A stretch of 64,000 bases of DNA from Acidobacteriota bacterium (GTDB taxonomy: Bacteria > Acidobacteriota > Thermoanaerobaculia > Multivoradales > Multivoraceae). A program made the position numbers and the translations under genes. The DNA is taken from assembly GCA_003388555.1 (NCBI GenBank), contig QQVD01000027.1:23951-87950 (forward strand), written 5' to 3'. Positions 21,087 through 36,491 of the stretch are shown piece after piece (the first letter of the stretch is position 1; each line of letters begins with the position of its first letter). Under the pieces are notes generated by a model that was not told where the DNA came from, did no database searches, and saw only the letters and a program-made list of their open reading frames with translations.

Positions 21087-22563
21087 CGCGGCTGGTCGAT
21101 CGCCAGCTGGTTGACCACCGTGGTGCGCAGGTGGCGACGCAGTGCCTCGTCGGTGAGATCGATGCGGCCCTCCCGCAGGGCGGTGCAGAGTCGGGTGCGC
21201 AATCCGGCCAGGTCGGCCTCGTCGCCGCCGGGCCCAGCCTCTCCGGCGGCGCCGAGCAGCTCGACGAGGCGCAGTCGCTCGCGACGACGGTGCTCGGGGC
21301 CGATCAGCAGATCGCGGCGCACCACGTCCAGCGCGTTCGCGGCGACTCGCGCCAGGAAGCCGGCGCGTCCGGAGCTCGCCGGCATCACCTCGCCGCGCAG
21401 GTAGCCGGCGGCGGCGGCGACCAGCTCGTCGATGCGCGGCATCTCGGAGCCGCGCGCGTCGGGGCTCTCGCCCGGAGCTCGGGTGGCGCCGTCTTCGTCC
21501 GGCTCCACGAGGGTCTCCGGATCGGCGACGAGCTCGACCTCCCCGGGGATCAGCTCGCTCACCAGATCGACCTGGCACTCGCTGCTGCGCCTGCCGATCG
21601 CGGCGCGCTCCACCGACCGGTCCGGACCGCTGCGGAAGTGCTGCGCCATGCCGAGGCAGCCGATCGCCCACCAGAACGAGCCGAAGACGATCCAGAAGCG
21701 CAGGTGCCCACGGTCGATCTCGATCCCCGAGACCTCCCGGTAGCCGGCCAGCAGGTCGTCGATGCTGCCGAAGCCGCCGACCTCGAGCTGGCGCCGCCCG
21801 AAGCGCCAGGAGTTGACGCAGATCCACCCGAGGTCGCGCACCGGGTCGCCGACGTGGGCGATCTCCCAGTCGAGCACCGCGCGCACGCCGTCCTCTCCGA
21901 CCATCAGGTTGCCGTTGCGGAAGTCGTTGTGCACCAGAGTCTCGCGGGAGCTGTTCGGCAGATTGTCGAGGAGCCAGCGGGCGGCGTAGTCGATCATCGG
22001 CTGGGCGGTGCCCAGGCGCAGATAGCGCTCGTAGGTCTGGCTCACGTAGCGATCGGTCGGCATCCGCTCGAGCGCGCCCCGGAGCCCGCAGGCGTCGAGA
22101 TCGAGGGCGTGGATGCGCGCCAGGATCTCGCCGCACTGGCGGGCCAGGTGCGGGCGCACCTCGGCGAGCTCGGGAGAACGCACGATGCGCGCTCCCAGCG
22201 TCTCGCCCTCGAGCCACTGCATGACGAAGCCGACGCCGAGCTCGTCCTCCGGCGTGAGCACCCAGAGGACCTCGGGCTCCGGGATGCCGGCGGCGCCGGC
22301 GGCCTGCATCAGTGCCGCCTCGATCTCCAGCATGGGTCGGCCCTCGGCGGCGGCGGCGCCACGTCCCCCCGGGGCGCGGCGCAGGGCGAAGCTGCGCTCG
22401 CTCTTGTCCCTGGTCTCGACCCGCAGGCGGTAGGTCTCCTGACTGGCGCCGCCGCTGAGGCGCACGCCGGAGATCAGACGCTCTGCGCCGAGCCGCCGCC
22501 GCGCCAGGCGCTCGAAGCGTGCTTCGAGATCGTCGGGCGGCTGGTCGGCGTCGCCGTTCGCGG
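21050..22563 (-). CDS. Phosphotransferase (APH/CHK kinase-like) family protein
   Basis: Kinase-like motifs LVHNDFRNGNLMV (catalytic HxDxxxxN) and VLDWEIAHVGDPVRDLG (DxE/D metal site); start is the MSPTANGD methionine. The listed 875-aa ORF 21050..23677 is a spurious upstream extension of this gene into the adjacent ACAD region. Confidence 0.75.
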
Positions 22564-22569
22564 TGGGGC

Positions 22570-23847
22570 TCATCCGCGGTCTTCGTCGACGCCCTTGGGA
22601 GCGCGCTGCTTCATGAAGCCGAACATGTAGCCGGCGACGCGCCGCATCTGGATCTCCTCGGCACCTTCGGTGATCCGGTAGCGGCGGTGGTGGCGGTAGA
22701 TGTGCTCGAACGGCTTGTGGCGCGAGTAGCCGAGGCCGCCGTGCACCTGCATGGCGCGGTCGGCGGCCTCGCAGCACATCCGGTTCGACCAGTAGTTGCA
22801 CATCGACACCTTGTCGGAGACCGAGAAGTTGCCGTACGTGTCCATCTGCCAGGCCGTCTTGTGGATCAGGGCGCGCAGCATCTCGCACTGGGTCTGCAGC
22901 TCGACCAGCGGGAACTGGATCGCCTGGTTGGTCGCCAGCGCCTTGCCGAAGGGCTTGCGCACCTTGGCGTAGGCGACCGCCTGGTCGATGCAGAACTGTG
23001 CGGCGCCGAGCGAGGACGCAGCCTGGCGGATCCTGTTCTCGTTGAAGAAGTGCTGCACCACTCCGAGCCCGTTGCCCTCGCCGCCGAAGATCGCGTCGTC
23101 GGGCACGTGCACGTCGGTGAGCGAGATGCGTCCGTGGTCGGTGGGCATGTTGAAGGTCCAGAGCATCTCCTCGACCCGGAAGCCCTCGGCGTCGGTCGGC
23201 ACCAGGAAGGCGGTGATCCCCTTGCCGTCGCCGGCCTTGCCGCTGGTGCGCGCGAAGATCAGGTCGTAGGGCGCCTTGTGGATGCCGGTGTTCCAGGTCT
23301 TCTCGCCGTTGATCCGCCAGCCGTCTCCGTCGCGCACCGCGACGGTCTCCATGTGGGTGGCGTCCGAGCCGTGCTCGGGCTCGGTGATGCCGAAGGCGAA
23401 GCCCTTGCTGCCGTCGAGCAGGCCGGGCACCCAATCGCGCTTCTGCTCCTCGGTGCCGTACTCGATCATCAGCAGCACGCCGACGTTGTTGGCGACGATC
23501 GAGTGCTCGTTCTGCAGATCGTTGTGCAGCCCGAGGCCCTTCTTCGCCAGGTGCTCGCGGATGATCGCCATGCCGAGGTTGGTGCCGTTCTTGCCGCCGT
23601 ACTCCTCCGCCAGCGGGTAGCGGTAGTGGCCGGCGGCGTCGGCGCGGCGGCGCGCCTCGCGTAGCAACGCCTCCCACTCCTCGTTGGGCAGGCCGCCGCG
23701 ATCCCAGTCGGTGCGGGCGTCCTCGCGTCGGTGGTCGAAGAAGCGGATGTTGTCGTCCTGCTCCTCGAGCGGCTTGATCTCGCGTTGGATGAAGTCGTCG
23801 AGCTCGTCGAGGTAGGCAGCGATCTCGTCGGGGATGTCGAAGTTCAA
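22570..23847 (-). CDS. Acyl-CoA dehydrogenase
   Basis: ACAD N-terminal, middle beta-barrel (FGITEPEHGSDATHMETVA...DGWRINGEKTWNTG) and C-terminal (QVHGGLGYSR) motifs. Confidence 0.9.
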   Translation of the reverse strand: MNFDIPDEIAAYLDELDDFIQREIKPLEEQDDNIRFFDHRREDARTDWDRGGLPNEEWEALLREARRRADAAGHYRYPLAEEYGGKNGTNLGMAIIREHLAKKGLGLHNDLQNEHSIVANNVGVLLMIEYGTEEQKRDWVPGLLDGSKGFAFGITEPEHGSDATHMETVAVRDGDGWRINGEKTWNTGIHKAPYDLIFARTSGKAGDGKGITAFLVPTDAEGFRVEEMLWTFNMPTDHGRISLTDVHVPDDAIFGGEGNGLGVVQHFFNENRIRQAASSLGAAQFCIDQAVAYAKVRKPFGKALATNQAIQFPLVELQTQCEMLRALIHKTAWQMDTYGNFSVSDKVSMCNYWSNRMCCEAADRAMQVHGGLGYSRHKPFEHIYRHHRRYRITEGAEEIQMRRVAGYMFGFMKQRAPKGVDEDRG

Positions 23848-23985
23848 CGGGGGTCTCCTTGGCGCGAGGCGGTCGGCGGAGGGTGACGCGGGGATCGCAG
23901 GAGAGGATAGCCGGGACGGCGTTTTGGCCCTCGCCGAGAGGATGCGCCGCGAGGCGGGGGCAGTCCCTGCGAGGACTGATGCACG

Positions 23986-24138
23986 AAGAACGGCTGGCCG
24001 TTCGAGCTGGCGGTCACGGTCGGCGTCGGGGTGGAGACCTGCCGGTCACTCACGCCGCTGTGCACCGAGCTCCTCGACGCCGCCGACGACGCGGTCTACC
24101 GCGCCGAGCGCTCCGGCTGCAACCGGGTGAGCGCCTGA
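23986..24138 (+). pseudogene. Remnant C-terminal fragment of a GGDEF (diguanylate cyclase) domain
   Basis: Short frame translates to ...FELAVTVGVGVETCRSLTPLCTELLDAADDAVYRAERSGCNRVSA*, matching the conserved GGDEF C-terminus (S[IV]GVA...LLxxADxALYxAKxxGRNRV); preceded by an in-frame stop and no intact upstream domain. Confidence 0.35.
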
Positions 24139-24159: not shown

Positions 24160-27100
24160 TCAGCGCGGCCGCTCGCTGGCGGCCGGGTCGCCCTCCGGTG
24201 CGCCGGTGTCCTCGCCCGCCGGAGTCGCGGTCTCGCTCTGCAGGCTCGCGGCGGCACCCTGCAGACTCGCGGTGTCCAGGCGCTTCAGGGTGTTCACCAG
24301 GTCCTTGAAGCGGTCTAGCTGCGACAGGGTGCGGTCGATGAGGGAGCGCAGACGCGGGTCGGGCTCGCCCTGCTGGCGGTTGGCCCAGCGCGAGATCCCG
24401 CGCACCAGCTCGAGCAGCTGCTCGGCGGTATCGCCTCCCAGGTCGTCGAGCACCTCGTGCACTCCGGAGCCGAGCGTCTGCACCACCCTGACGCTGGCGC
24501 CGGGGGCTCCCGCGTTCGCCGCCGCGGGGCGCTCCAGCGCCGAGAGTGCTCCGCCGATCCCCTGCAGCGAGCGCACCACCTGCGCCAGCTGGTCCGAGAG
24601 GCGCTCGCCGACTCCACCGAGGATCGGCTCGAGTGCGCCGGCGTCCGGCGCCCCGGTCGCGGCGCCGTGCGGGGTCCGCGCCAGCACCTCGGCGAGCTGC
24701 GCGGCGAGGGTGGCCGCCGCCGGCTGCAGCGTGCGCTCGAGACTCTGGCCCAGCGCCGTCGCCAGCGCCTGTGCGCTCTCCTCGTCCCCTGCCGGGGCCC
24801 GGCGCTCCTCCTCCTCGGCAGCGGTACGCTGCACCGCCGCCGAGGAGGCCTGGCCGATCGAGCGCTCGATGGAGCGCAACCCGTCGGCGACCAGACCGAG
24901 GGTGCCGGTGACCCGGGTGACCGGATCGTCCTCGGCGCCGCCGATGGCGCGCGCCCGTGCGTAGAGCTCGCGGATCTCCGCGATGCGACGGCGCTCGTCC
25001 ACATCGAGGACGCCGCGCAGCTCGCGCAGCCGGAGCAGATTCCACTCGGCGCCCTGGGTGAGCGTCTGGGCCTCGCCGAGGTAGTGGTCGTCGAGCAGCG
25101 CCTCGAGCTCCTGCTGGTTCATCACCGCCGAGATCCGGGCCGCCAGCTTGTTCATGTTGCGGTAGCTGCCCTGGAGCTGGAACGGCGGTTCGGTGCGGAA
25201 GCGCTCGTCCTGGGCCGCCGACTCGATGTAGAGCCGGTTGACCCGCAGCAGCACCTGCTGCACCCGCAGCAGATGGCGCAGCACCGAGAGCATCTCCTCG
25301 AGCTCGAGCGCCGAGTAGGGATGGCCCAGGTCGCTCTCGGCGTCGGCCTCGCCGCGCGCCATGCGCACCAGCACCCGCAGGTCGCGGGGGTCGCGGGCGG
25401 CGACCGGCGCCAGCACGCCGTTCGAGGTCAGCGAGTTCTCGAGGTAGGAGAGGGCGAAGAGGTCTTCCCGGCCCTCGAGCACGTCGCCCAGGTTGTAGAC
25501 GTCGGCGCGGTTGGCCAGCATGTCGGGAATCTGGAAGCGCTCACCCGACTCGGTGTAGGGATTGCCCGCCATGCAGACGCAGAAGCGCTTTCCTCGCAGG
25601 TCGTAGGTCCGGGTGCGGCCGCGCCACACCCCTTCGATGCGCCGCTGGCCGTCGCACAGCGAGATGAACTTCTGCAGCAGCTCGCTCGAGGTGTGCTGGA
25701 TGTCGTCGAGGTAGAGCAGCACGTTGTTGCCCATCTCGAGCGCCAGGTTGATCTTCTCCACCTCCTGGCGGGCGGTGGCGCTGCGTGCCTCGCTCGGATC
25801 GAGGGAGGTCACCGAGTGCCCGAGCGAAGGTCCGTTGACCTTGACGAAGACGAGGCCGAGCCGGCTGGCGATGTACTCCATCACCGTCGTCTTGCCGTAG
25901 CCCGGGGGGGAGATCAGCAGCAGCAGTCCCATCAGATCGGTGCGCTTGCCTTCGCCGGCGGCTCCGATCTGCTTCGCCAGGTTGTCGCCGATGAGCGGCA
26001 GGTAGACCTGGTCGAGCAGCTGGTTGCGGACGAACGAGCTCAGCACCCGGGGCTCGAACTCGTCGAGTCGCAGCACCTTGCGCTGGCGCTCGATCAGCTC
26101 GTGGCGCAGGCGCTGAAACTCGCGGAACGCCGGCACCCGCTCGCGGACGTAGCGGTCGTAGCGCGCCAGGGTCTCGTCGACGCGCAGACGCAGTCGTCCC
26201 CTGACGATGCGGCGATGACTCCCCAGGAGGCCCTCGACCTCCGTCTCCACCGCGGCGTGGCTCTCGCGCCGCGCCAGCTCCTCGCCGGCGGTGCGCAACG
26301 CCGCGACCAGCGGCACCTGGCGCCGCCTCCTGACCGCGAGGCGTCGTCCCTCGCCGTCGGCTGAGCTCTCCTCGCGGCGCACGAAGGCGCCGAGCCAGGA
26401 GGAGGCGACGGCGAACTTCTCGGCAGGATCCCCCGCCGCTGCCAGCTCCTCGGCGAGCGCCGTGTCGTTCTGGTGATCGCGCAGCGAGCGCACGAAGGCT
26501 GCCTCGAGCTCGAGCGCCTCGCCACCGACCACGAAGCGGGGGCCGCGCTCGCCCACCTCCTCGATCAGGTAGCGAGCGGCGGCGGACGGGTCGCAGCCTT
26601 CGAGGCGAGCCGATCTTTCTGCAAGGTCGGCGAGCAGCGGAGCGAGCTCGGCGACGAGCTCCGCGACGCGCGTGCCGCTGCCGTAGGCACGCCGCAGACG
26701 GTGCACTCCGGCGATGCGCCGCGCCCAGCGCCGCCTCTGCTCCTCCGACAGTCCGAGCTGCCAGCCGAGCAGCGCCAGAGCCCGGTCGACCGGCCGGTAG
26801 GCGAGCAGCTCGGCGGCCGAGTGGAGCCGCAGCAGGTGCTCGAGCAGGAGCGCCGCGTCGGCGTCGTGCACGCCGCGCTCGTAGCCCTCGTCGTAGCGTT
26901 CTGCGCTCGCGGCACGCACCACCTGGAGCAGCTCGCCGGAGTCGAGCGCCGCATGCAGATCGTCGAGACTCGGTGCAGCGTCGGCCATCCGGCGCGAGGG
27001 CGGCGACTCCGCGTCCTCTCCCTCTCCCGCCTCGTCGTCCGTCGCCGACTCCGCCTCGTCGCTCACCGCGAGGGCCCTCTCCGCCAGGGCCTCCTCGGCG

Positions 27101-30042
27101 CTGCGCAGCAACGAGGCGGCGAGGTACTCGCCGCGGTAGATCTGGTCGCTCTCGGAGACCAGGGTCTGCAGCCAGAGGTCGGGAGTGCCGATGAGCTGGT
27201 CTTCCGGCACCGGCTGGTAGAAGTCGGTGCCGCCGAGATGAAGGTCGAGCCGGCCATCGCGTGGCACCAGGGTGAGGTCGACCTGCTGCGTGTTGACCGA
27301 GAACCGGTGATCGCCGAAGCGGACCAGCTCGCTGCCGTCGCCGGTGGTCTCGAAGATCTCCTGGCGATCGCGCAGCGACCGTCCGGCCTCCTGCCGTGCC
27401 GCCAGCAGTGCGCCTTCGAGCTCGTCGGCCTTGACCACCTCTCCCAGCTCGCGCAGCCGCTCGCTCTGGTCGCGCAGCTTGGCGACCATCGGGTCGGAAG
27501 CGAAGAACGCGTTCAGGGCGTCCTGGTCGGAGACGCCCGCCACCCGCCGCCGCACGCCGTCGAGGATGCGCGCCGAGGCCTGCACCAGCTGCTCGCTCCG
27601 CCGCTGCCGCTGGTCGAGCAGCTGCTGCTTCTTGGCGCTGAGAGCCTCGTAGACCTCCTCGCGCTTGGTGACCAGGCGTTCGAGGAACTCGTCGAACTCG
27701 GCGTAGCGACCTTCGAGCTCCTCGAGCGCCACCATCAGCCGGCCCAGGGCATCGTCGCACTCCTCCGGCGTCGTCGCCATCTGGACGGCGCTCGAGACTC
27801 CCTGGCCAAAGAGCTTGAACTCGACCCCGAATTCGCCCACCGCCTCCTTCGAGCGCAGCTCGCGGCGCCGTGCGTCGAGGCGGGCGCGCACCCGGTTGAT
27901 CGAGCCCAGCACCTCGGAGATCGACTCGAGGATGGCGGTGCGCACCAGGGCGTCGTCGATCTCGAGATTGCTCGCCACCTCGGCCAGCAGTCGCACTCCC
28001 TGCTCGCGCTCGTCGAGCTCGCGCCGCAGAGGGTCGGCATCGACGACGCGGGCGACCGCGGCGGCCCGCTCCTCGAGCTCTCCGACCTCGCGGCGGAACG
28101 ACTCCAGCGCGTCGTCACGCTGCAGGAAGCGGGCGGTGGCCGCGGCCAGCGTCTCGGCCTGCGCGGCGACCTGCGTCTCGAGTCCGTCGAGGCGTTCGCG
28201 GTCGACGTAGCGCAGGTCGCGCAGGGTGATCAGCTGACCGCGCAGGGTGCGCAGCCGCGCCAGCCCGCGCACGAACTGGCTCGCCTCGGAGAAGCTCTGC
28301 GGCCTGACCTCGCGCTCGGCGAGGGTGACCTGAGCCGCTGCCTCGTCGAGCGACTCGCCGGCCTGGGCGCGCAGGCTCTCGACCTTCTGGTACTCGTCGA
28401 CCACGCGCTCGGCGGTGCCGCGCAGCTGCCTCACCAGCTCGTCGAGTGGACCCTCGGGCAGCCTCCCCTCGAGCTCTTCGCCGAGCTCGGCCTCGCCCAG
28501 CCAGTGGTAGCTGTCGAGCGCCCGACCGCACGCCCTGACCAGAGCGTGGTAGTGGGCAGAGCCGAGGCCTTCGCTCTCCTCCTTGCGCGCGGCGCGCACC
28601 AGGCTGAGCAGCTCGGCGACGGCGCGCACCAGCTCGGCGTTGCCGAGGCGCTCGAGGAAGGTGCTCGCCGAGGCCGCGGTGCCGCGCGCGGCGTACTCGT
28701 CGGTGCAGAACGGCGTCTGCCAGATCTGCATCGTGTGCACCCTGGTGGGCTCTTCGCCGGCGGCACGGAAGATCACCATCCTGCCGCTGTCGAAGATCGC
28801 GTAGCCGTTGCAGCGGATCGGTGTCTGCACCTGCTTGCGGATCAGGTTGTACGGCAGCAGCAGGGTGGCGCCCGAGCCGCGGTGGTGGAAGGCGTAGAGC
28901 ACGTCCTCCCCGTTGGGGGCGCGGATGCGGCGCACGAACTCGAGGTCGGTGATCTGCTGCTCGTAGACCTTGGTCTCGCCGCTCTGCAGGTGGTAGCCGC
29001 CGGGGAAGATGATGCCGTGGTCCTCGGGCAGCTGCTGGCAGGAGGAGCCGATCGCGTCGATCCGCTCGACGGAGCGGGTGCGGGTGTTGAAGACGAAGTG
29101 ACGCCAGCGGTCCTCGCGGAACGGCAGTACCCGCAGCAGGATCAGGGTGCCGAGCTCGGCGTAGTGGATCTCGGCGTCGTCGAGCGACTGGTCGGGATCG
29201 TCGACCGGCTCGCGGTAGATCCCGAGGCCGTCCTCGGTGTTGTTCTCGACCTTGATCGTCAGGTCGCCGCCGACGGTCTCGACGAAGACCTTGCCGAGCA
29301 CGTCGACGTGCGGGTGCTTGCCCGCCACGTGGTCCTCGCGCGATGTCGTCGTCCATTCGAAGTCGTGGGGCGGATCGAAGACGTGGTCGCGCTCGCCGCG
29401 GTTGTCGAGGTAGCGCGCCCCGCCGGGCTCGATCTGCCAGCGCAGCACCTTGTGGTCGTAGGCCGTGGCGCCGGTCTGGAAGACCGCCAGCAGTCGGCCT
29501 CCGAGATTGCGGAGCTGCAGCAGCCGAGTCGACTTGTAGTACTCGTAGAGCTCGCGAAAGTCGGCCTGGAAACGGCCGTCGTCGAGGAAGTCGGCGTCGA
29601 CGTCGCGGAAGGCGAACCGCGGCGGCGCCGCCGGCTCGTCGCTGCCGGCCCCGTCCGGACCGCCGTCGCCCGGCGTGTCGCCCTTCGCGTCGGGCCCCTC
29701 CTCGACGAAGCGGTGGCAGGAGAAGACATCGCCGACCTCGGTCTGCTTCTTGAGGCCGATGAAGACGTTGTAGCCGAAGAGCAGGCGGTCGCCGACGCGG
29801 GCGATGTCGCGCGGAACGCAGTTGTGCTCGGTACGGATGCGCACGCTGCCGATCACCGCGAGCTCGCTGCCGCCGAAGCGCTCTACGCGACGCTCGTTGA
29901 GCGCCTCCGCCGCCTGGCCGAGAGCCTCGGCCTGACGCCTCAGCCGCGCCGACAGAAGCTCGAAGGCGCCGCGGTCGACGGTCTGCCCGTCGGCAGCCTG
30001 CTCGGCTTCCGCGGTCGCTCTCTCGGTCTCGGATGCGCTCAC
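24160..30042 (-). CDS. Giant (1960 aa) protein with a single MoxR/ChlI-like AAA+ ATPase module, N-terminal beta-rich domain and extensive coiled-coil regions; family unassigned
   Basis: Uninterrupted 5.9-kb ORF, GTG start. Walker A LLLLISPPGYGKTTVMEYIASRLG, Walker B NVLLYLDDIQHTSSE, AAA_5-like sensor region CMAGNPYTESGERFQIPDMLANRADVYNLG (cf. ChlI/MoxR NP..E.G...L...LLDRF) around residues ~1290-1450. N-terminal ~500 aa beta-rich. Long heptad-like E/R/L/A-rich segments. Co-directional with flotillin and dehalogenase genes. Confidence 0.85.
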   Translation of the reverse strand: MSASETERATAEAEQAADGQTVDRGAFELLSARLRRQAEALGQAAEALNERRVERFGGSELAVIGSVRIRTEHNCVPRDIARVGDRLLFGYNVFIGLKKQTEVGDVFSCHRFVEEGPDAKGDTPGDGGPDGAGSDEPAAPPRFAFRDVDADFLDDGRFQADFRELYEYYKSTRLLQLRNLGGRLLAVFQTGATAYDHKVLRWQIEPGGARYLDNRGERDHVFDPPHDFEWTTTSREDHVAGKHPHVDVLGKVFVETVGGDLTIKVENNTEDGLGIYREPVDDPDQSLDDAEIHYAELGTLILLRVLPFREDRWRHFVFNTRTRSVERIDAIGSSCQQLPEDHGIIFPGGYHLQSGETKVYEQQITDLEFVRRIRAPNGEDVLYAFHHRGSGATLLLPYNLIRKQVQTPIRCNGYAIFDSGRMVIFRAAGEEPTRVHTMQIWQTPFCTDEYAARGTAASASTFLERLGNAELVRAVAELLSLVRAARKEESEGLGSAHYHALVRACGRALDSYHWLGEAELGEELEGRLPEGPLDELVRQLRGTAERVVDEYQKVESLRAQAGESLDEAAAQVTLAEREVRPQSFSEASQFVRGLARLRTLRGQLITLRDLRYVDRERLDGLETQVAAQAETLAAATARFLQRDDALESFRREVGELEERAAAVARVVDADPLRRELDEREQGVRLLAEVASNLEIDDALVRTAILESISEVLGSINRVRARLDARRRELRSKEAVGEFGVEFKLFGQGVSSAVQMATTPEECDDALGRLMVALEELEGRYAEFDEFLERLVTKREEVYEALSAKKQQLLDQRQRRSEQLVQASARILDGVRRRVAGVSDQDALNAFFASDPMVAKLRDQSERLRELGEVVKADELEGALLAARQEAGRSLRDRQEIFETTGDGSELVRFGDHRFSVNTQQVDLTLVPRDGRLDLHLGGTDFYQPVPEDQLIGTPDLWLQTLVSESDQIYRGEYLAASLLRSAEEALAERALAVSDEAESATDDEAGEGEDAESPPSRRMADAAPSLDDLHAALDSGELLQVVRAASAERYDEGYERGVHDADAALLLEHLLRLHSAAELLAYRPVDRALALLGWQLGLSEEQRRRWARRIAGVHRLRRAYGSGTRVAELVAELAPLLADLAERSARLEGCDPSAAARYLIEEVGERGPRFVVGGEALELEAAFVRSLRDHQNDTALAEELAAAGDPAEKFAVASSWLGAFVRREESSADGEGRRLAVRRRRQVPLVAALRTAGEELARRESHAAVETEVEGLLGSHRRIVRGRLRLRVDETLARYDRYVRERVPAFREFQRLRHELIERQRKVLRLDEFEPRVLSSFVRNQLLDQVYLPLIGDNLAKQIGAAGEGKRTDLMGLLLLISPPGYGKTTVMEYIASRLGLVFVKVNGPSLGHSVTSLDPSEARSATARQEVEKINLALEMGNNVLLYLDDIQHTSSELLQKFISLCDGQRRIEGVWRGRTRTYDLRGKRFCVCMAGNPYTESGERFQIPDMLANRADVYNLGDVLEGREDLFALSYLENSLTSNGVLAPVAARDPRDLRVLVRMARGEADAESDLGHPYSALELEEMLSVLRHLLRVQQVLLRVNRLYIESAAQDERFRTEPPFQLQGSYRNMNKLAARISAVMNQQELEALLDDHYLGEAQTLTQGAEWNLLRLRELRGVLDVDERRRIAEIRELYARARAIGGAEDDPVTRVTGTLGLVADGLRSIERSIGQASSAAVQRTAAEEEERRAPAGDEESAQALATALGQSLERTLQPAAATLAAQLAEVLARTPHGAATGAPDAGALEPILGGVGERLSDQLAQVVRSLQGIGGALSALERPAAANAGAPGASVRVVQTLGSGVHEVLDDLGGDTAEQLLELVRGISRWANRQQGEPDPRLRSLIDRTLSQLDRFKDLVNTLKRLDTASLQGAAASLQSETATPAGEDTGAPEGDPAASERPR

Positions 30043-30074
30043 TCGTCAGGGCTCGCGGTTCGGCGCCAGGGGTC

Positions 30075-30989
30075 TCACGGCAGCCAGTCGGCGATCGCGA
30101 GGCCGATCTCGTGCGGCGAGTCCTCCTGGAGGAAGTGGCTGCCGCGCACGGTGACTTCGCGCTGGTTCGGCCAGCGGCGGCAGAACTCGCGCTGGCTGCC
30201 GATCAGGATGGCTCCCGGGTCGGCGTCGATGAACAGCTTGGGGACGTTCGCCGAGGCGTCGCTGGCGAGCCACCCGGCGTAGTCGCCGACGAGAGCCGCG
30301 ACGTCGGCGGGCTCGCCCTCGATCGGGATCTGTCGCGGCCAGGTGAGGGTCGGCCTGCGACTCTCGCCAGGCTCGCGGAACGGTCGGCGGTAGACCTCCA
30401 TCTCGGCCTCGTCCAGCTGGCGGAGGATCGATCCGGGCAGTACCCGCTCGACGAAGACGTTCTTCTCCAGCACCATCTGCTCGCCGGCCGGCGAGCGGAA
30501 TCCCTGGAAGACGCCGCGCGCCGCCTCGGGCCAGTCGTCCCAGCTCTCGATCGGCCGCACGATCGCCTCCATGTAGGCGATGCCGCGCACCGCGTCGCGG
30601 TGCAGGTTGGCCCAGTGGAAGCCGAGCGCCGAGCCCCAGTCGTGGATCACCAGGGTCACGTCGCGCTCGACGCCGAGTGCGGCCAGGGCGGCGGCGAAGT
30701 AGTCGTAGTGCTCGGCGAAGGTGTAGCGATCGGGCCCGCCGGGCGCGAGCTTCTCGGAGTCGCCCATGCCGATCAGATCGAGGGCGATGCAGCGGCCCCG
30801 GTCCGCCAGGTGCGGCATGACGTTGCGCCACAGGTACGACGAGGTCGGGTTGCCGTGCTGGAAGAGGATCGGCCTGCCGGTGGCCTCACCGAGCTCGACG
30901 TAGGCCATCCTCCTGCCGAGCACCTCGACGATCTTCTTGGGCAGCTCGGCACGGCTGATGTCACTTCGGGTCGGGTCGCTGCTCATCAA
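30075..30989 (-). CDS. Haloalkane dehalogenase (alpha/beta hydrolase fold)
   Basis: DhaA/DhlA-type motifs: [23 protein letters not shown], nucleophile elbow [12 protein letters not shown]-terminal [13 protein letters not shown] (catalytic His). Confidence 0.85.
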
Positions 30990-31045
30990 TAGTCACTCCA
31001 CCACTTCGGCCACCGGCGAGGGAGCGCCGGCCCGGTTCCGACGCC

Positions 31046-32956
31046 TCAACCGCCACCGCCCTCCTCGCCCTGGTCCTCCTCGAGCAGCTTGGCCAGGGCG
31101 TCGCGCTGCGCCGGGGTGGCGCGCGGCAGACGACGGGCCAGCAGGGCGAGCAGCGCCAGGCTCTGGGCGTTGCCCGAGCTGGCCAGACCCGAGATCGCCT
31201 GGCGAACGTCCTCGGGCAGGCTGCGCTCGCCGTCGAGGTACTCCGACAGGGTCGCCTGCACGGTGCCGGAGCGGCCGACGAAGGCGTCGAGCGACTTGCC
31301 GGCCGAGATCGCGTTGACCAGGCGGTCGAGGAAGGCGCCGTCGCCGCCGACGATGTCGATGTTGGCCTGGCCGAGGGCGGTGGCCAGGACCTGCGCCTGG
31401 GCCTCGGCGACGCGGCGCTGGGCGTCGATCGCCTCGCTCTCCACCGCGCGCTCCTTCTCGATCCGCAGGCGGAACTCCTCGTGCTCGCGACTCGCCTCGT
31501 CGAGAGCCGCCATCGCCGTCGCCTTCTTCTCGATCCCTGCGGCCTCCGCAGTGAGCTTGGCCTCGATGGCCGACGCTTCGGCGGAGCCGGTCTCCCGAAC
31601 CACGTTGGCCTGCGCCCGCCCCTGCTTCTCGACCGCCGCGGCGTCCTCTTCCTTCACCCGCACCTCGGCCAGACCGCTGGCCGCCACCTCGGCCTGGATG
31701 CCCTCGGCGAGGCGGATCTTGGCCTGCGCCTCCTTGTCGGCGGCCTGCAGCTCGGCGTCCGCGAGGGTGAGCCTCTCGCGCGCCTTGAACTTGGCCGCCT
31801 CTTCCTGGGCCTCGGCCTTCTTGATGTCCTTGACCAGGATCTCCTGCGCCTCGGCCTCGGCACCGATGATCACGGCCTTCTTCTGACGGTTCGCCTCCTC
31901 GACGACGCGCAGCTCCTTGATGCGCTCCTCCTCCTCGGCCACCGTACGGTCGACCGCGACGCGTTCGCGGATGACGTCGGCGATCGCCTTCTTCTCGGTC
32001 TCGATCTCCTTCTCCTTGGCGATGCGCATCAGCTCGGTCTCGCGCTCGCGCGTGATCGCCTCGAGCTGCCGGTCCTTCTCGACCCGCTCGTTCTCGACCG
32101 CGACCACCCGTTCGCGGTTCTTCTTCGCCACCTCGACCTGGCGCTGCTTGTTCTCTTCGTTGATCGCGATCTCTTCGTCGGTGCGGATGCGGGCGCTCTC
32201 GGACTTGAGGCGCTCCTCGGCCTCCACCTTGCGCGTCTCGGCCTGCTCGCGCGCCTGCACCGTCGCGATCTCGCGCAGCTGCCTGGCCTCGGCGTCGGCC
32301 TGCTGCCGCTCGAGCTCGTAGATCGCCTCCTGCGCCTCGACGTCCTGCTTCTTGATCTGCTTGCGCTCGAAGTTCTGGAACTCGTTGGTGCGCACGTGCT
32401 CACGGGCGGTGAGCTCGGTGATCTTGCGGATGCCCTGCGCGTCGAGGATGTTGAACTCGTCGAGGGAGGAGAGCGGCGTCTGCTCGAGGAAGTCGATCGC
32501 CGCGTCCTCGAGGATGTAGCCGTTGAGGTCGCGGCCGATCACCCGGATGATCTGGTCGCGGAACTCCTCGCGCTTGGTGTAGAGATCGACGAAGTCGAGC
32601 TGCTTGCCGACCGTCTTCAGCGCCTCGGAGAACTTGGCGCTGAACAGCTGTTCGAGGGTCTGGTGATCGGAGGCGCGCCGGCAGCCGATCGACTGGGCGA
32701 CGCGGATGACGTCCTCGACCGTCTTGTTCACCCGCACGAAGAAGGCGACCTTGATGTCGGCGCGGATGTTGTCCTGACAGATCAGGCCCTCGGTGCCGCG
32801 GCGGTCGATCTCGATGGTCTGCAGGGAGATGTCCATCTCCTCGACCCGGTAGGCCATCGGGAAGACCAGCCGCGGCGTGAACGACACGCTGATCTTGCCG
32901 GGGCGGGTGACCACCAGGGCACGGCCCTGGTCGACCTTGCGATAGAACAACGCCAT
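31046..32956 (-). CDS. Flotillin-like SPFH/band-7 protein (YqiK/FloT-like) with long EA-rich coiled coil
   Basis: N-terminal membrane hairpin + SPFH domain (ALFYRKVDQGRALVVTRPGK...LQTIEIDRRGTEGLICQDNIRADIKVAFFVRV...) followed by ~350 aa of EAxxE coiled-coil repeats and flotillin C-terminal region; ATG at 32956 preceded by AGGAGAG. Confidence 0.85.
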   Translation of the reverse strand: MALFYRKVDQGRALVVTRPGKISVSFTPRLVFPMAYRVEEMDISLQTIEIDRRGTEGLICQDNIRADIKVAFFVRVNKTVEDVIRVAQSIGCRRASDHQTLEQLFSAKFSEALKTVGKQLDFVDLYTKREEFRDQIIRVIGRDLNGYILEDAAIDFLEQTPLSSLDEFNILDAQGIRKITELTAREHVRTNEFQNFERKQIKKQDVEAQEAIYELERQQADAEARQLREIATVQAREQAETRKVEAEERLKSESARIRTDEEIAINEENKQRQVEVAKKNRERVVAVENERVEKDRQLEAITRERETELMRIAKEKEIETEKKAIADVIRERVAVDRTVAEEEERIKELRVVEEANRQKKAVIIGAEAEAQEILVKDIKKAEAQEEAAKFKARERLTLADAELQAADKEAQAKIRLAEGIQAEVAASGLAEVRVKEEDAAAVEKQGRAQANVVRETGSAEASAIEAKLTAEAAGIEKKATAMAALDEASREHEEFRLRIEKERAVESEAIDAQRRVAEAQAQVLATALGQANIDIVGGDGAFLDRLVNAISAGKSLDAFVGRSGTVQATLSEYLDGERSLPEDVRQAISGLASSGNAQSLALLALLARRLPRATPAQRDALAKLLEEDQGEEGGGG

Positions 32957-33204
32957 CTCGTCTCTCCTGGGAACTCGGTTCCGGCGGCTGGCGATCGCTC
33001 GCACGGCGACCGCTCGCGGGTACGCGTCGGCGCGAGCCGAAGGGCGCCTCCGCGCTGCGCTCCTCTGCTACGGCTGGGGGAAGCCGTCTATTCTCCCACA
33101 GCGCCCGATCGCTCGGAAGAGTCGAAGGGGCGGCGGCACCGAGGAGGCCAGGGGGCCGCCGATGCCGATGCGGCGCGTCGGGCCGGCGCGACCTCTGAGC
33201 GACC

Positions 33205-34266
33205 TCAGCCGAGGTGCGCGGCGGCCGCCATCTCGCGCAGCTCCTCGGGTCCGCCCAGCACCTGGCGGTCGTAGCCGACGCGCTTGTACCAGAGGTGCAT
33301 GTCGCACTCCCAGGTGAAGCCGATGCCGCCGAAGACCTGGGTCGCCTGAGTGACCGCGAAGGTCGCCGTGTCGCACGCGTGCGCCTTGGCTAGAGAGACG
33401 AGCTCGCGCACCGCTGCGTCTTCCGGCGCGCTCGACTCGTCCCAAGCGTGGGCGGCGTACCAGAGCAGCGACTGCACCGGGTCGAGCTCGGCGAAGACCT
33501 CGGCGCAGACGTGCTGCACCGCCTGGAACGACCCGATGACGCGTCCGAACTGCTGGCGCTGCTTGGCGTAGTCGACCGCTGCCTCGAGGCCGCGCTGGGC
33601 GGCGCCGAAGGCATCGGCGGCGAGGGCGACGCGCGCCGCCTGGAGCGCCCGCTGCCTGGCGGAGATGGGCAGCCGGCCGAGACTCGCCTCGGCCTCGGCG
33701 CCGTCGAGACGCACCTCGGCGAGGCGCCGCGTCTCGTCGACGGTGAGCAGCGTCTCGATCGCGACGCCTTCGGCGTCGGGCGCGACCAGGTGGAGCTCGC
33801 CGTCGGCCTCGACCAGCAGCCGCTCGCAGACGCCGGCGTCGGCGACGTACGGCGCCAGGCAGCTCAGCCCGTCGCCACCGGGCACCGCGCCGAGCACCGG
33901 CGACAGCAGCAGCTCACCGGCGGCAAGGCGCTGCAGCAGGGGCTCCGTCCGGTCGACATCCTCGGCCGCCGCGAGCAGCAGCGGCGCCAGCACGTAGGCG
34001 CTGTGGAAACTCAGCGGACAGGCGGCACGGCCCAGCTCCTGAGCCACGACGGCGGAGTCGAGCAGGCCGAGGCCGGCGCCGCCCTGCTCCTCGCCCACCA
34101 GGAGACCGCAGACCCCCAGCTCGCCGAGCTCGCGGTGCAGCGAGCCGTCGTGTCCGGTGGTGGACTCCATGATCTCGCGCACCCGCGCGATCGGCACGTT
34201 GCGGTCGAGGTGCTCGCGCAGCGAACGCCGGAGTAGCTCCTGGGGTGGCGACAGCCCGAAGTCCAA
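33205..34266 (-). CDS. Acyl-CoA dehydrogenase family protein (short, ~350 aa)
   Basis: Starts with TTG -> (M)DFGLSPPQELLRRSL, classic ACAD N-terminus; C-terminal ACAD motif QVFGGIGFTWECDMHLWYKR. In a different frame from upstream ACAD; listed 838-aa ORF is a read-through artefact. Confidence 0.75.
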   Translation of the reverse strand: MDFGLSPPQELLRRSLREHLDRNVPIARVREIMESTTGHDGSLHRELGELGVCGLLVGEEQGGAGLGLLDSAVVAQELGRAACPLSFHSAYVLAPLLLAAAEDVDRTEPLLQRLAAGELLLSPVLGAVPGGDGLSCLAPYVADAGVCERLLVEADGELHLVAPDAEGVAIETLLTVDETRRLAEVRLDGAEAEASLGRLPISARQRALQAARVALAADAFGAAQRGLEAAVDYAKQRQQFGRVIGSFQAVQHVCAEVFAELDPVQSLLWYAAHAWDESSAPEDAAVRELVSLAKAHACDTATFAVTQATQVFGGIGFTWECDMHLWYKRVGYDRQVLGGPEELREMAAAAHLG

Positions 34267-34274
34267 AGCGGGCC

Positions 34275-35450
34275 TCAGCTCTTCGCCGCGCTGCGCGGCA
34301 GGCCGAGCCCGCGCTGGGCGATGATGTTCTTCTGGATCTGGGCGGTGCCGCCGCCGATGATCAGGCCGAGGGCGTACATGTACTGGATCTGCCACTCGCC
34401 GTCGTCGCGCACGTGCGCCGAGCCGCGGCGCAGGATGCCGCGTTCGCCCATCGCGTCGATCGCCAGGGCGCAGATGTCGTAGTTCAGCTGGCAGCCGTTG
34501 AGCTTGGTGATCAGCCCCGAGGCGCCGCTGTCGCGACCGCGCAGGCGGTCGGTCAACATGCGGTAGCGGTGGAACTTCATCGCCAGGGCCCTGGCGCGCA
34601 GCCGCATCAGCCGGTCGCGCCAGACGGGATGGTCGATCTTGCCGGTCTCCCGCAGGATGCGCTCGGCGCCGTCGAGGAAGGTCTCGGCCTGGGCCGAGCG
34701 CCCCAGCATGTCGCGCTCGAAGCGCAGCGTCGCGGTACCGATCTCCCAGCCCTGACCGGGCTCGCCGATGACGTTGCCGGCCGGTACCCGGGCGTCGGTG
34801 AAGAAGACCTCGTTGAAGTCCGACTCGCCGGTCATCTGGCGCATCGGCCGCACCTCGATGCCGGGGGTCTGCATCGGGATGACCATGTAGCTGATCCCGC
34901 CGTGCTTGCCGGCTTCCGGCTCGGTGCGGATCAGCCCGAACATCATGTCGGCGATCTGGGCGGTCGAGGTCCAGATCTTCTGCCCGTTGATCACGTAGTC
35001 GTCGCCGTCGCGGCGGCCCCGGGTCTGCAGGCTGGCGAGATCGCTGCCCGAGCCCGGCTCGCTGTAGCCCTGGCACCAGAGCAGTCGACCGCGCATCGTC
35101 GGCTCGACCCACAGCTGCTTCTGCTCCTCGTCGCCGTAGTGGAGCAGGGTGGGCACGAACATCGAGATGCCCTGGTTGGCGATCCCCTGCGAGACGCCGG
35201 CGCGCCGGAACTCCTCCTCGATGACCAGATCGCCGAGCAGGTCGGGCTGCTGGCCGGCGCCGCCGTAGCGCTCCGGGATGGTGCGGCCGACCCAGCCGCC
35301 GTCGACCAGCAGGTCCTGCCAGGCGAGCCGTTGCTCCATGGTGGCCCCGGAACCCGGCCCGGCCGGCACCGCCAGGTCGCGGTGGCGGTCGAGGAACGAA
35401 CGCACCTGCTGGCGCAGACCGTCGTACTCGGGCCCGATGTCGAGGTCCAT
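34275..35450 (-). CDS. Acyl-CoA dehydrogenase
   Basis: ACAD motifs: LWCQGYSEPGSGSDLASLQT, DDYVINGQKIWTS, IIGGGTAQIQKNIIAQRGLGLP. Confidence 0.85.
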   Translation of the reverse strand: MDLDIGPEYDGLRQQVRSFLDRHRDLAVPAGPGSGATMEQRLAWQDLLVDGGWVGRTIPERYGGAGQQPDLLGDLVIEEEFRRAGVSQGIANQGISMFVPTLLHYGDEEQKQLWVEPTMRGRLLWCQGYSEPGSGSDLASLQTRGRRDGDDYVINGQKIWTSTAQIADMMFGLIRTEPEAGKHGGISYMVIPMQTPGIEVRPMRQMTGESDFNEVFFTDARVPAGNVIGEPGQGWEIGTATLRFERDMLGRSAQAETFLDGAERILRETGKIDHPVWRDRLMRLRARALAMKFHRYRMLTDRLRGRDSGASGLITKLNGCQLNYDICALAIDAMGERGILRRGSAHVRDDGEWQIQYMYALGLIIGGGTAQIQKNIIAQRGLGLPRSAAKS

Positions 35451-35468
35451 CCGCCAGCGCTCCGGTGC

Positions 35469-36338
35469 TCAGTCGAGCAGGTCGACCAGAGTGGACTCGA
35501 TGCGCTCGAATCCCTTGGCGCCGGTGAACCGTCCGACCTCGCGGTCGCCCCGGTAGACGATGGCGGTGGGCAGCCCGGTGACCTCGAGGGCGCGGACCTC
35601 GGCGTCCTGCCAGCCCTCCGGCGGATAGTCGATGCCGTAGTAGTCGAAGTCGATCCCTGCGCCGCGCAGCGACTCCTCGAGCTTCAGCGCGTGCGGCAGG
35701 TAGTGCTTGCAGTGGCCGCACCAGCTGCCGAAGACGATGCGCACCCGCACCGGCTGCTCGAGCGCCGTCAGCTTGGCCACCTGCGCCGGGTCGACGCGGT
35801 ACTCCCGCATGCCGGTGCGGTAGGCCGGCGAGTGCTGGAGGAGGTCGCCGAGCTCACGCGGGCCGAGCAGCGGCGGCTTGGGGCGCAGACGGGCGTTCTC
35901 GGGAGCCGGGAGGATCAGCTCGTGGCCGTCCTGGGTGAAGTCGCCGACGTAGGTGCGCTCGGCGTCCTCGCGCAGGTCGATCTCGTCGTCGCCGCGCAGA
36001 AGACCGGCCTCGGCCACCTGGTCGACCCGCTGAGTGCGGGCGAAGACGAGCAGCGGCGCCGGCAGCACCTCGCTCTCGACCAGCAGGGCGGCGGCTCGCT
36101 GCGAGAGAGCGATCTCGGCGTCGACCGGCTCGCCGTCGATGGTCAGCTGGTACTCGCCGCTCGGCACGAAACCGGAGAGCACTCCGTGCGACTGGCCCGG
36201 AGAGGCCGCGGGCGCTACAGCGGCGACGATCGCTGCTGCGATCGGCAGGCTCCCGCGGCGCCCCAGGCGCTGCCAGCGTGAGCGGTGGTCGCCCGCGTCC
36301 GCGGCCCGGCGATGCTGAAGGAGGGTGAGGTCGTTCAT
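35469..36338 (-). CDS. Thioredoxin-fold protein (CxxC, TlpA/DsbE-like) with N-terminal signal/anchor
   Basis: Active-site motif IVFGSWCGHCKHYLPH and downstream cis-Pro region (GLPTAIVY). Confidence 0.7.
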   Translation of the reverse strand: MNDLTLLQHRRAADAGDHRSRWQRLGRRGSLPIAAAIVAAVAPAASPGQSHGVLSGFVPSGEYQLTIDGEPVDAEIALSQRAAALLVESEVLPAPLLVFARTQRVDQVAEAGLLRGDDEIDLREDAERTYVGDFTQDGHELILPAPENARLRPKPPLLGPRELGDLLQHSPAYRTGMREYRVDPAQVAKLTALEQPVRVRIVFGSWCGHCKHYLPHALKLEESLRGAGIDFDYYGIDYPPEGWQDAEVRALEVTGLPTAIVYRGDREVGRFTGAKGFERIESTLVDLLD

Positions 36339-36491
36339 GGCGGCATCCCTGCTCGTGGGGGCGTCACGTCACACCTTGGCCGGCGACGCCCGGTGATCAG
36401 CGGCGATGCTATCGCGGGGACCACGGCGCTGCGGCCCGGGCGGCGGCACGGCGCCGCGGTGCAGGTCTGGTGGAGGAGGGCGGAGGAGGGC

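Follow-up and report, generated by a model that had tools for sequence, protein, structure and literature searches.

The gene order conserved around them supports a genuine functional pairing of the YqiK-type flotillin and the giant AAA+ ATPase encoded in the window (the whole 64,000-nucleotide stretch of DNA that was analysed), and we infer that the two rather probably serve membrane homeostasis, as a flotillin scaffold with an AAA+ remodeller dedicated to it. A flotillin gene was located immediately upstream of the ATPase gene and on the same strand in 150 of 153 evaluable loci (about 98%), namely in all 79 genome loci and in 71 of the 74 metagenome loci, which together covered at least four phyla (Actinomycetota, Myxococcota, Acidobacteriota and Proteobacteria), and the two genes were mostly separated by −8 to +200 nt. 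Thus, the pairing claimed in a preliminary description of this DNA stands, as homologues of the giant protein, far from never lying near SPFH genes, did so in nearly every locus. The reverse comparison, starting from flotillin homologues, revealed the ATPase gene as the next gene in three of three cases, and 41 of the 73 top flotillin matches on contigs measuring 12 kb or more apparently shared their contig with top ATPase matches, equal-sized contigs serving as proxy. Three metagenome loci (L098, L105 and L128) carried the ATPase gene with no flotillin gene within 4–7 kb, indicating that the ATPase can exist without a flotillin beside it.

All three co-directional minus-strand ORFs of the preliminary description were found real and intact at the positions given there. 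The flotillin gene (SPFH2 type; 31046–32956, 636 aa, ATG start) has a reading frame that stays open to 33004, and is followed by the gene of a haloalkane dehalogenase of the HLD-II subfamily (LinB/DmbA type; 30075–30986/30989, 303 aa) and by the ATPase gene (24160–30042, 1960 aa, GTG start). The close spacing reported earlier was evident, although the gaps measured 59 nt, with the dehalogenase ATG at 30986 preceded by GGAG, and 32 nt instead of 57 and 33 bp. Third-position GC was alike in the three ORFs (0.92–0.94), which fits real genes in a genome of 71% GC. Metabolic genes, acyl-CoA dehydrogenases, flank the operon. The intergenic region between the upstream acyl-CoA dehydrogenase gene and the flotillin gene (32957–33204, minus strand) is the site at which the YqiJ/NfeD-like gene and the flotillin transmembrane (TM) helix codons of most relatives would be expected. 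Reading of its sequence revealed an Arg-rich in-frame stretch upstream of the flotillin gene, closed by a stop codon, and neither an Rfam family nor a sigma-70-like site was detected in it.

The identity of the flotillin was borne out by comparison with E. coli YqiK, to which BLASTP aligned 423 aa at 27% identity (2e-28), starting from YqiK residue 29 directly past the YqiK TM helix, and by hhalign (99.9%, E 3e-33). A Pfam scan of the window flotillin itself gave no match; among its homologues, Band_7 was recognized in 6 of 34 and Flot in 1 of 34. An identical protein is deposited at NCBI as 'flotillin family protein [Acidobacteria bacterium]'. Besides its SPFH domain, the protein has a long helical region rich in E, A, K and R and, C-terminally, a region containing IDIVGGDG; it possesses no hydrophobic segment and no N-terminal TM helix (maximum KD19 1.24); likewise, no TM segment was predicted in the dehalogenase or in the giant protein (maximum KD19 1.09 in the latter). 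All other complete flotillins compared keep the TM helix, the only exceptions being the window and four relatives whose ATPases share 53–57% identity, and these five also have in common the absence of NfeD. The window therefore falls within a sub-clade of Acidobacteria whose flotillin has lost the TM helix and which has no NfeD-like gene. The earlier remark that NfeD is missing holds for the window and this sub-clade but not generally, since a YqiJ/NfeD-like gene, weakly resembling E. coli YqiJ, was present in 73 of 81 loci, where it usually precedes the flotillin gene. With the helix lost and the NfeD-like partner absent, any membrane contact would have to be peripheral here, as it is in eukaryotic flotillins, or the assembly would be soluble, and membrane association of the window's pair is thus putative.

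The giant protein had been described as an architecture outside any named family. It proved to combine the Pfam families DUF3686, DUF7902 and AAA, is named 'DNA repair ATPase' at NCBI, and belongs to a family of more than 6500 homologue clusters. Conservation extends from residue 31 to about residue 1710 and is followed by a variable, low-complexity C-terminal tail (aa ∼1740–1960; 24163–24825, minus strand) with column conservation of 0.1–0.4 versus 0.6–0.9 elsewhere. The DUF3686 domain (aa 41–513; 28504–29922, minus strand) comprises a long helix, a divergent beta-propeller and a helical bundle; the AlphaFold model of this N-terminus (pLDDT 86.5) showed roughly seven four-stranded blades, which confirms the propeller and is in line with the beta-rich N-terminus noticed before. 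DUF7902 (PF25472, E 1.5e-25; aa 644–728; 27859–28113, minus strand) lies within a charged helical middle region (aa ∼520–1330) for which no sequence homologue was found in the PDB, even by profile search. The flanks of the AAA+ core, previously called heptad-like, are indeed E/R/A/L-rich and helical in the model, but their 3.5-residue periodicity is patchy and heptads were not confirmed.

A single AAA+ module (Pfam AAA and AAA_5; aa ∼1340–1700; 24943–26025, minus strand) contains all the motifs reported for the giant ORF, i.e. ISPPGYGKT, LYLDDIQH and MAGNPYTESGERFQIPDMLANRADVY. Its Walker A (GYGKTT), Walker B (LYLDD, a DD variant), sensor-1 (N1494) and arginine (R1512) showed no variation in sets of 18 and 46 homologues. 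The model of the module (pLDDT 80.7) displayed a pre-sensor-1 beta-hairpin at model residues 238–251, and Foldseek retrieved NorQ (3.8e-7, TM 0.60–0.63), CbbQ2, RuvB and MCM. The AAA+ fold is thereby confirmed, the module is nearest to MoxR, RuvB and MCM, and the earlier 'MoxR-type' label is reasonable, with RuvB and MCM nearly equal to the top-ranking NorQ and CbbQ. Although these MoxR family members match the core best in structure (E 4e-7, target TM 0.60–0.63) and share the pre-sensor-1 hairpin, the window ATPase has only 14% sequence identity to NorQ/CbbQ, is 6–7 times longer and carries DD in Walker B; no VWA partner was observed among the neighbour genes scanned. From its sequence, the DD in place of DE might indicate slow, switch-like hydrolysis instead of a processive motor.

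The flotillin and ATPase genes are the core of a widespread bacterial module, which usually runs from a YqiJ/NfeD-like membrane protein through the YqiK-type flotillin to the DUF3686 propeller/helical/AAA+ ATPase; some Proteobacteria add YjfI-PspA on the upstream side and a PLD-like hydrolase on the downstream side. PspA was encoded upstream in 16 genome loci and DUF2170 (YjfI) in 13, as well as in about 20 metagenome loci, and a PLD-like gene was found downstream in nine genome loci and about six metagenome loci; no PspA, YjfI, PLD or NfeD gene is present within the window. This linkage with PspA, YjfI and YqiJ in other genomes agrees with the membrane-associated remodelling machine envisaged in the preliminary description. 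In the mechanism that we propose, the SPFH domain and the long E/A-rich helix would let the flotillin oligomerise, like solved SPFH assemblies, and form a ring or dome at the membrane, on its cytoplasmic side. SPFH cages with AAA+ partners (PMC12048511) and a flotillin dome (bioRxiv 10.1101/2024.05.09.593390) are documented. The ATPase would be cytoplasmic and presumably hexameric, docking by means of its N-terminal propeller and its long helical arm, and would use ATP to remodel the flotillin assembly or proteins held there, either by assembly/disassembly or by extraction. Beyond what the gene identities, the conserved adjacency, the intact ATPase motifs and the lost anchor show, we infer a physical interaction, an oligomeric state, a remodelling activity and a role in membrane stress.

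Such a pair would be a further instance of the recurrent SPFH-plus-AAA+ pairing, whose best-understood precedent is HflK/C-FtsH, where an SPFH protein is likewise linked genetically and functionally to an AAA+ enzyme (PMC12048511). In that system, FtsH is a membrane-anchored protease and the cage is periplasmic, whereas the window ATPase is soluble, lacks a protease domain, belongs to another AAA+ branch and carries a propeller. HflK/C-FtsH also provides the established case of SPFH cages enclosing and regulating an AAA+ enzyme (PMC12048511), and it is conceivable, albeit considerably less probable than the remodelling proposed above, that the relation is reversed, with the flotillin assembly serving the ATPase as a regulatory enclosure or platform and the true substrates of the ATPase being proteins other than the flotillin itself, e.g. 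PspA/ESCRT-III-like polymers or misfolded membrane proteins. The PspA linkage (the 16 genome and about 20 metagenome loci) and the propeller, a typical module for binding substrates or adaptors, speak for this; the ATPase, however, has neither protease domain nor TM segment, and PspA is missing from the window. This reading amounts to another form of that coupling, and the data do not separate it from the scaffold-remodeller explanation. From sequence, the action may run in either direction, the flotillin being acted on by the ATPase or being its organiser.

An anti-phage or other conflict system, with the giant coiled-coil ATPase as its sensor or its effector and, in the genomes that have one, a PLD-like nuclease, is improbable. 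PADLOC did return weak matches to Lamassu LmuB (residues 535–902, E 1e-4) and, at the P-loop, to IetA and mad8, the PLD-like neighbour in locus L066 gave its best matches, none of which reached the cutoff, with NucT nuclease models and DISARM DrmC, and a toxin-antitoxin pair lies within the L078 operon. Yet no PADLOC model was convincing, the LmuB match reflecting coiled-coil-like similarity, and the flanks are stable within genera, with shared flanking clusters in 7–8 loci, including L012 and L015 of Nonomuraea. Moreover, the module retains 45–70% identity across phyla, which sets it apart from defence islands with their fast evolution, its partners (flotillin, YqiJ, PspA and YjfI) are membrane-homeostasis genes, and those flanking the window operon are metabolic. 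The secretion or defence accessory considered earlier found no support, the PADLOC matches being weak coiled-coil or P-loop noise.

The dehalogenase was correctly recognized in the preliminary description: it scored 421 bits with NCBIfam NF002938 (cutoff 241), matched 7pw1 at 2e-134 and LinB (1cv2) at 6e-123 in the PDB, and its motifs HGNP, HDWG, YMEA and GSHFLQED are readable. Its full-length match above the equivalog cutoff and conserved catalytic motifs ally it with LinB/DmbA, from which it differs in its unusual setting inside a flotillin-ATPase operon. A dehalogenase gene between the pair was found in the window only (0 of 80 genome loci, 0 of 80 metagenome loci and 0 of four close relatives), so that the three genes do not form the conserved unit suggested before. 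Judging from gene order, the dehalogenase is a lineage-specific insertion outside the conserved machine, though probably co-transcribed with the pair. That all three genes form one unit, with an HLD-type hydrolase whose substrate, hydrophobic or halogenated and perhaps lipid-like, would be processed within the flotillin assembly or beside it, is even less probable than a defence function. In L001/L088, a bona fide but non-orthologous HLD-I gene (NF002043, 362 bits versus a cutoff of 265) has its start 8 nt ahead of the stop codon of the ATPase gene, and an HLD-like alpha/beta hydrolase gene follows the PLD-like gene in the L066 operon; as dehalogenase genes are rare, two independent recruitments would exceed chance expectation, which we roughly put at about 0.03–0.07. 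The three cases, however, occupy three different positions, no HLD was encoded in any of the 80 metagenome loci, in 77 of 80 genome loci or in the four closest relatives, and the question, prompted by the window itself, is subject to ascertainment bias. Furthermore, the junction also takes clearly unrelated insertions, such as an NYN gene and an MNT/HepT toxin-antitoxin pair in L078 and unrelated genes in L040. Given the two other loci, the dehalogenase may have a sporadic accessory role.

A DNA-repair or SMC/MukB-like ATPase with an incidental flotillin neighbour, as implied by the name in use at NCBI and Pfam and by RuvB among the top structural matches and weak P-loop matches of the AAA+ core, is very improbable, because the flotillin adjacency in 150 of 153 loci cannot be incidental and the RuvB likeness is limited to the generic core (18 bits versus a cutoff of 282). 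Moreover, SMC and ABC heads are missing, the one AAA+ module comes late in the chain, the analysis revealed no DNA-binding domain, and repair genes were never conserved neighbours. In our judgement, the name seems to be a transferred annotation that no evidence supports.

The operon type is already known from comparative genomics. Ravi et al. (2024; mSystems, PMC11237479) described computationally, as an extended Psp system, an operon of Band-7/flotillin, YqiJ/YuaF and a 'beta-propeller + coiled-coil + AAA+ ATPase', with a functional prediction matching the present one; experiments were not reported and Pfam names not given, and our literature search found no experimental work on the operon and no mention of DUF3686 or DUF7902. 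The window shares its flotillin type and ATPase architecture with that operon and matches what the paper terms the 'abbreviated operon'; the same YjfI/DUF2170, PspA, YqiJ-like and PLD partners were recovered here in related loci. In the E. coli yqiJ-yqiK and B. subtilis yuaF-floT operons, a short NfeD accompanies an SPFH2 flotillin (Hinderhofer et al., 2009; PMC2636767). The window flotillin is homologous to YqiK over the SPFH domain and coiled coil and its relatives keep the upstream YqiJ-like gene, but its identity to YqiK does not exceed 27%, an ATPase gene is missing from the E. coli operon, and the window copy is without TM helix and NfeD partner. Compared with the operon of Ravi et al., the window is devoid of PspA, YjfI, YqiJ/YuaF and PLD, its flotillin has no TM helix and a dehalogenase gene stands between the core genes. 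The window copy thus departs from the usual form in its missing membrane anchor and its extra dehalogenase gene.

The three open reading frames postulated in the preliminary description were found on the minus strand where it had placed them. The flotillin gene (31046-32956) encodes 636 aa counted from its ATG, the ORF remaining open to position 33004; the dehalogenase gene (30075-30986 or 30989) encodes 303-304 aa; and the giant ORF (24160-30042) encodes 1960 aa from a GTG start two codons past an in-frame TGA. The genes are separated by intergenic gaps of 59 and 32 nt, show a third-position GC of 0.92-0.94 in a window of 71% GC, and were recovered identically when genes were called independently on an ENA contig of 100% identity. 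A hydrophobicity scan revealed no TM-compatible stretch in any of the three products. A promoter scan returned no promoters, terminator-like sites were no more frequent than in a shuffled control, and no Rfam match was detected between positions 20000 and 37000.

On the same strand, one acyl-CoA dehydrogenase gene (22570-24045) lies downstream of the cluster and two adjacent ones (33205 to ∼34270 and 34275-35468) lie upstream, so that in this organism only the cluster is embedded in genes of lipid/acyl-CoA metabolism; a thioredoxin-domain gene is also located upstream, within 33205-36368 (minus strand). The wider window resembles an ordinary Gram-negative chromosome, with genes for FeoB, a TonB-dependent receptor, histidine kinases and an MFS transporter. 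A predicted 1347-aa ORF on the plus strand (52576-56619) combines FtsW/RodA/SpoVE (aa 449-806) with a penicillin-binding transpeptidase (aa 1048-1333) and, as read, would be an unusual single-chain SEDS-bPBP arrangement, although it may be mis-joined. Another plus-strand ORF (17791-19896) joins a BlaR1-type M56 peptidase domain to C-terminal ankyrin repeats. The ∼2.6 kb between 19900 and 22570 are covered solely by long ORFs that overlap one another on the two strands (19848-22217, minus; 20972-22630, plus; 21050-23677, minus), none of which passed a codon-position GC filter; the two scanned against Pfam (19848-22217 and 20972-22630) gave no match.

A profile of the giant protein, scanned against one genome per species, yielded over 600 matches, of which 80 loci were kept. 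In 79 of these a flotillin 45-70% identical to that of the window was encoded on the same strand directly upstream of the ATPase, and in the eightieth no DNA was available upstream of the ATPase. A metagenome scan provided 80 further loci, 74 of them with sufficient upstream DNA; flotillin was present in 71, and PspA together with YjfI in about 20. Thus, genomes and metagenomes taken together, flotillin adjoins the ATPase in 150 of 153 family loci, which makes this association one of the tightest gene linkages observable, and the pair claimed in the preliminary description is real. The case named there as telling against it, ATPase homologues that never adjoin SPFH genes, did not arise. The three metagenome exceptions carry unrelated genes upstream of the ATPase; in one of them (L128, 4494-6295, on a contig of 39% GC) these are genes for an AIM24-family protein and an M48 (HtpX-like) peptidase, immediately upstream on the same strand, without flotillin. 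In the reverse direction, starting from flotillin, three of three previously unseen homologues had a DUF3686 ATPase gene behind them and a gene of ∼230 aa in front. In the window the flotillin gene also lies upstream of the ATPase gene on the same strand, at a distance of 1003 nt because the dehalogenase gene is inserted between them. Clustering of all ORFs revealed a third conserved gene just upstream of flotillin in 73 of 81 loci, whose product of about 225 aa has TM helices in its N-terminal part and a beta-rich domain at the C-terminus, and weakly resembles Escherichia coli YqiJ. In gammaproteobacterial loci this trio is preceded by DUF2170 (YjfI) and PspA genes and followed by a PLD-like gene.

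The intervening gene encodes a haloalkane dehalogenase of the HLD-II type in which every catalytic motif is present. It scored 421 bits with the HLD-II equivalog model NF002938 (cutoff 241), and residues 18-302 matched PDB 7pw1 (2e-134) and LinB (6e-123). An Asn motif, HDWG (Asp, Trp), YMEAIV (Glu) and GSHFLQED (His) can be read from the sequence, and by analogy with LinB these supply the catalytic pentad, with Asp as nucleophile, His as base, Glu as acid, and Asn and Trp binding the halide. The preliminary description had taken the dehalogenase as a member of a three-gene operon. Its GC3 equals that of the neighbouring genes, and neither repeats nor insertion scars were seen beside it. A dehalogenase between the core genes was found in the window only, and in none of the 80 genome loci, the 80 metagenome loci or the four nearest relatives; a conserved three-gene operon was therefore rejected, and a functional unit including the dehalogenase is unlikely. 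Unrelated genes split the same junction in Lampropedia hyalina (L078, 6895-9989; an NYN-domain protein and an MNT/HepT toxin-antitoxin pair) and in a Myxococcales MAG (L040, 3578-9941; envelope genes OmpA, DUF11 and CopD-like), indicating that the flotillin-ATPase junction tolerates passenger genes. The dehalogenase should nevertheless not be dismissed outright, given two further occurrences. In a deltaproteobacterial MAG (L001, 15651-16544, equivalent to L088, 15902-16798) a bona fide HLD-I, non-orthologous to the HLD-II of the window, begins 8 nt ahead of the ATPase stop codon, and in a Lysobacteraceae MAG (L066, 15426-17167) the ATPase gene is followed by a PLD/NucT-like gene and then by an HLD-like hydrolase closing the operon. 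No HLD accessory was present in the 80 metagenome loci. HLD-type genes are a possible recurrent accessory of the operon.

The architecture of the giant protein, which the preliminary description did not recognise as a named family, turned out to be that of a catalogued, uncharacterised family, as Pfam detected DUF3686 (PF12458, 652 bits; residues 41-513, E 5e-196), DUF7902 (PF25472, 90 bits; residues 644-728) and, over their cutoffs, AAA and AAA_5 (residues 1374-1498), in the order and at the length (about 1600-2000 aa) typical of the family. Its matches fall into more than 6500 clusters at 90% identity, the listed homologues being 48-57% identical over 87-98% of its length. Among 1.84 billion representative proteins searched, DUF3686 occurred in 733 clusters, almost always at the N-terminus of proteins of 1600-2000 aa. 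Conservation extends from residue 31 to about residue 1710, the final 220 residues being variable, and Walker A (GYGKTT), Walker B (LYLDD), N1494 and R1512 show no variation across homologues. The family-wide Walker B is of the hhhhDD form (LYLDDIQH, aa 1446-1447) instead of the usual DE, and is invariant in 46 homologues. It resembles the DnaA-type DDIQ motif, and such a Walker B may confer slow, switch-like ATP hydrolysis. Over its middle 800 residues the protein is charged and helical, and no relative of this part was detectable in the PDB. A scan for heptads in the E/R/A/L-rich flanks of the AAA+ core gave a patchy 3.5-residue periodicity. Two further invariant motifs lie outside the named domains, namely ERYDEGYERGxHDxD (aa ∼1049-1062) and HRFSVNTQ...LTLVPR...GTDFY (aa ∼910-940), the latter within a brief stretch rich in beta structure. 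When the conserved middle region (aa 885-1335, including the former motif) was compared as a profile with PDB sequences, nothing significant was found. With the whole protein, a PDB sequence search gave only P-loop-level matches, to p97, Rix7 and VAT.

A predicted model of residues 1231-1762 (pLDDT 80.7) has the canonical fold of AAA+ proteins, a beta-hairpin preceding the sensor-1 strand. In Foldseek, NorQ and CbbQ2, both of the MoxR family, came nearest (E about 4e-7, target TM 0.60-0.63), with RuvB and MCM close behind at similar E-values. Of the two MoxR features of the core, a pre-sensor-1 hairpin and a helix-2 insert, the model shows the hairpin but no clear helix-2 beta insert. MoxR proteins also have a VWA-domain partner, and no VWA domain was found among the Pfam-scanned window neighbours or the scanned conserved neighbour clusters. 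An SMC/MukB-like protein was rejected: SMC, MukB and RecN proteins combine a hinge with a split ABC head (Walker A N-terminal, signature motif and Walker B C-terminal), whereas the giant protein has one contiguous AAA+ module (residues 1340-1700), matched neither SMC_N nor an ABC domain, and gave only a weak coiled-coil match to LmuB. Where a source names the homologues, they are called 'DNA repair ATPase', and the reading of the giant protein as a repair enzyme draws on nothing beyond this name and the generic AAA+ likeness to RuvB.

Only a head-to-head alignment to E. coli YqiK settled the identity of the flotillin (BLASTP 2e-28; hhalign 99.9%, E 3e-33), as the protein itself had no match in Pfam, NCBIfam, PADLOC or PDB sequences; a profile of 34 homologues compared with PDB sequences also gave nothing. 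The flotillin of the window has an SPFH (Band 7) domain homologous to those of known flotillins, and six of these 34 homologues reached Pfam Band_7 (best E 5e-11). Its E/A/K/R-rich helical region aligns to that of YqiK, Pfam Flot being weakly matched by one of the 34 (0.006), and the NCBI entry for the identical protein reads 'MAG: flotillin family protein [Acidobacteria bacterium]'. An N-terminal membrane anchor, either TM helix or hairpin, is absent, no hydrophobic segment being found in the protein. It begins at the residue just past the TM helix of YqiK and of all other complete homologues, except four relatives which also lack the helix, and the in-frame sequence upstream is Arg-rich and ended by a stop codon. 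Furthermore, tblastn (E ≤ 10) detected no NfeD/YqiJ/YuaF-type gene in the window, although 73 of 81 related loci carry one. Both the TM-less and the NfeD-less state recur in these four relatives, the nearest examined (ATPase identity 53-57%), of which at least two come from Acidobacteriota assemblies. The two traits therefore characterise a sub-clade and are due neither to faulty assembly nor to a single deletion event, and a one-off truncation of the flotillin was rejected on the same grounds. About a dozen clusters among the top flotillin matches listed (622-648 aa, 68-78% identity) fit the short form in length, their N-termini having been partly checked.

Exactly this neighbourhood has already been described (Ravi et al., 2024, PMC11237479; preprint 2020), including more widespread 'abbreviated operons' without PspA. 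As the CesT/Tir (YjfI)-PspA dyad is not represented in the 64-kb window by any PspA or DUF2170 match, the window fits only the abbreviated class. The flotillin-YqiJ/YuaF pairing, without the ATPase, was reported by Hinderhofer et al. (2009, PMC2636767). No experimental study of a DUF3686 ATPase was found in the literature, searches on DUF3686, DUF7902, flotillin with DNA repair ATPase, and bacterial flotillin with AAA+ and propeller returned no publication, and no ATPase of this kind is named in a survey of the SPFH proteins of P. aeruginosa published in 2026. The window operon is thus an anchor-less, NfeD-less, dehalogenase-carrying form of a known, experimentally untouched operon type. A membrane-related role, as proposed in the preliminary description, is probably right; PspA and YjfI are linked to the pair in other loci and point to envelope stress. 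A defence role of the module, also raised there, finds support at the level of noise and is improbable.

Solved SPFH assemblies (the eukaryotic flotillin 44-mer, HflK/C and QmcA-YbbJ) are described as membrane-apposed domes of SPFH domain and coiled coil, and HflK/C is described as enclosing and regulating the AAA+ protease FtsH (PMC12048511). By analogy with these assemblies, and from the invariant ATPase motifs, we propose that this flotillin subfamily has the DUF3686 protein as its ATP-driven partner, which would dock via its propeller and helical arm and remodel the flotillin scaffold or the clients of the scaffold. We infer this whole mechanism, including interaction, oligomeric state and substrate, from context and fold. 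Eukaryotic flotillins work without a TM helix or NfeD partner, and in the window clade the scaffold would do likewise. It is conceivable, if rather improbable, that the anchor-less flotillin forms a soluble or peripheral SPFH dome with its own megadalton-scale AAA+ remodeller, HLD-type hydrolases acting on hydrophobic cargo held in the assembly, as a non-proteolytic cytoplasmic counterpart of HflK/C-FtsH.

Thousands of annotated proteins thus bear, in 'DNA repair ATPase', what is probably a misleading name. The molecular role of bacterial flotillins is still unclear, and a dedicated ATPase, travelling with one flotillin subfamily across the more than 600 matches in a one-genome-per-species collection, offers a concrete experimental handle, as ATP-dependent assembly, disassembly or client extraction is directly testable. 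The anchor-less, NfeD-less sub-clade constitutes a natural experiment on whether the flotillin-ATPase partnership needs a TM helix and NfeD.
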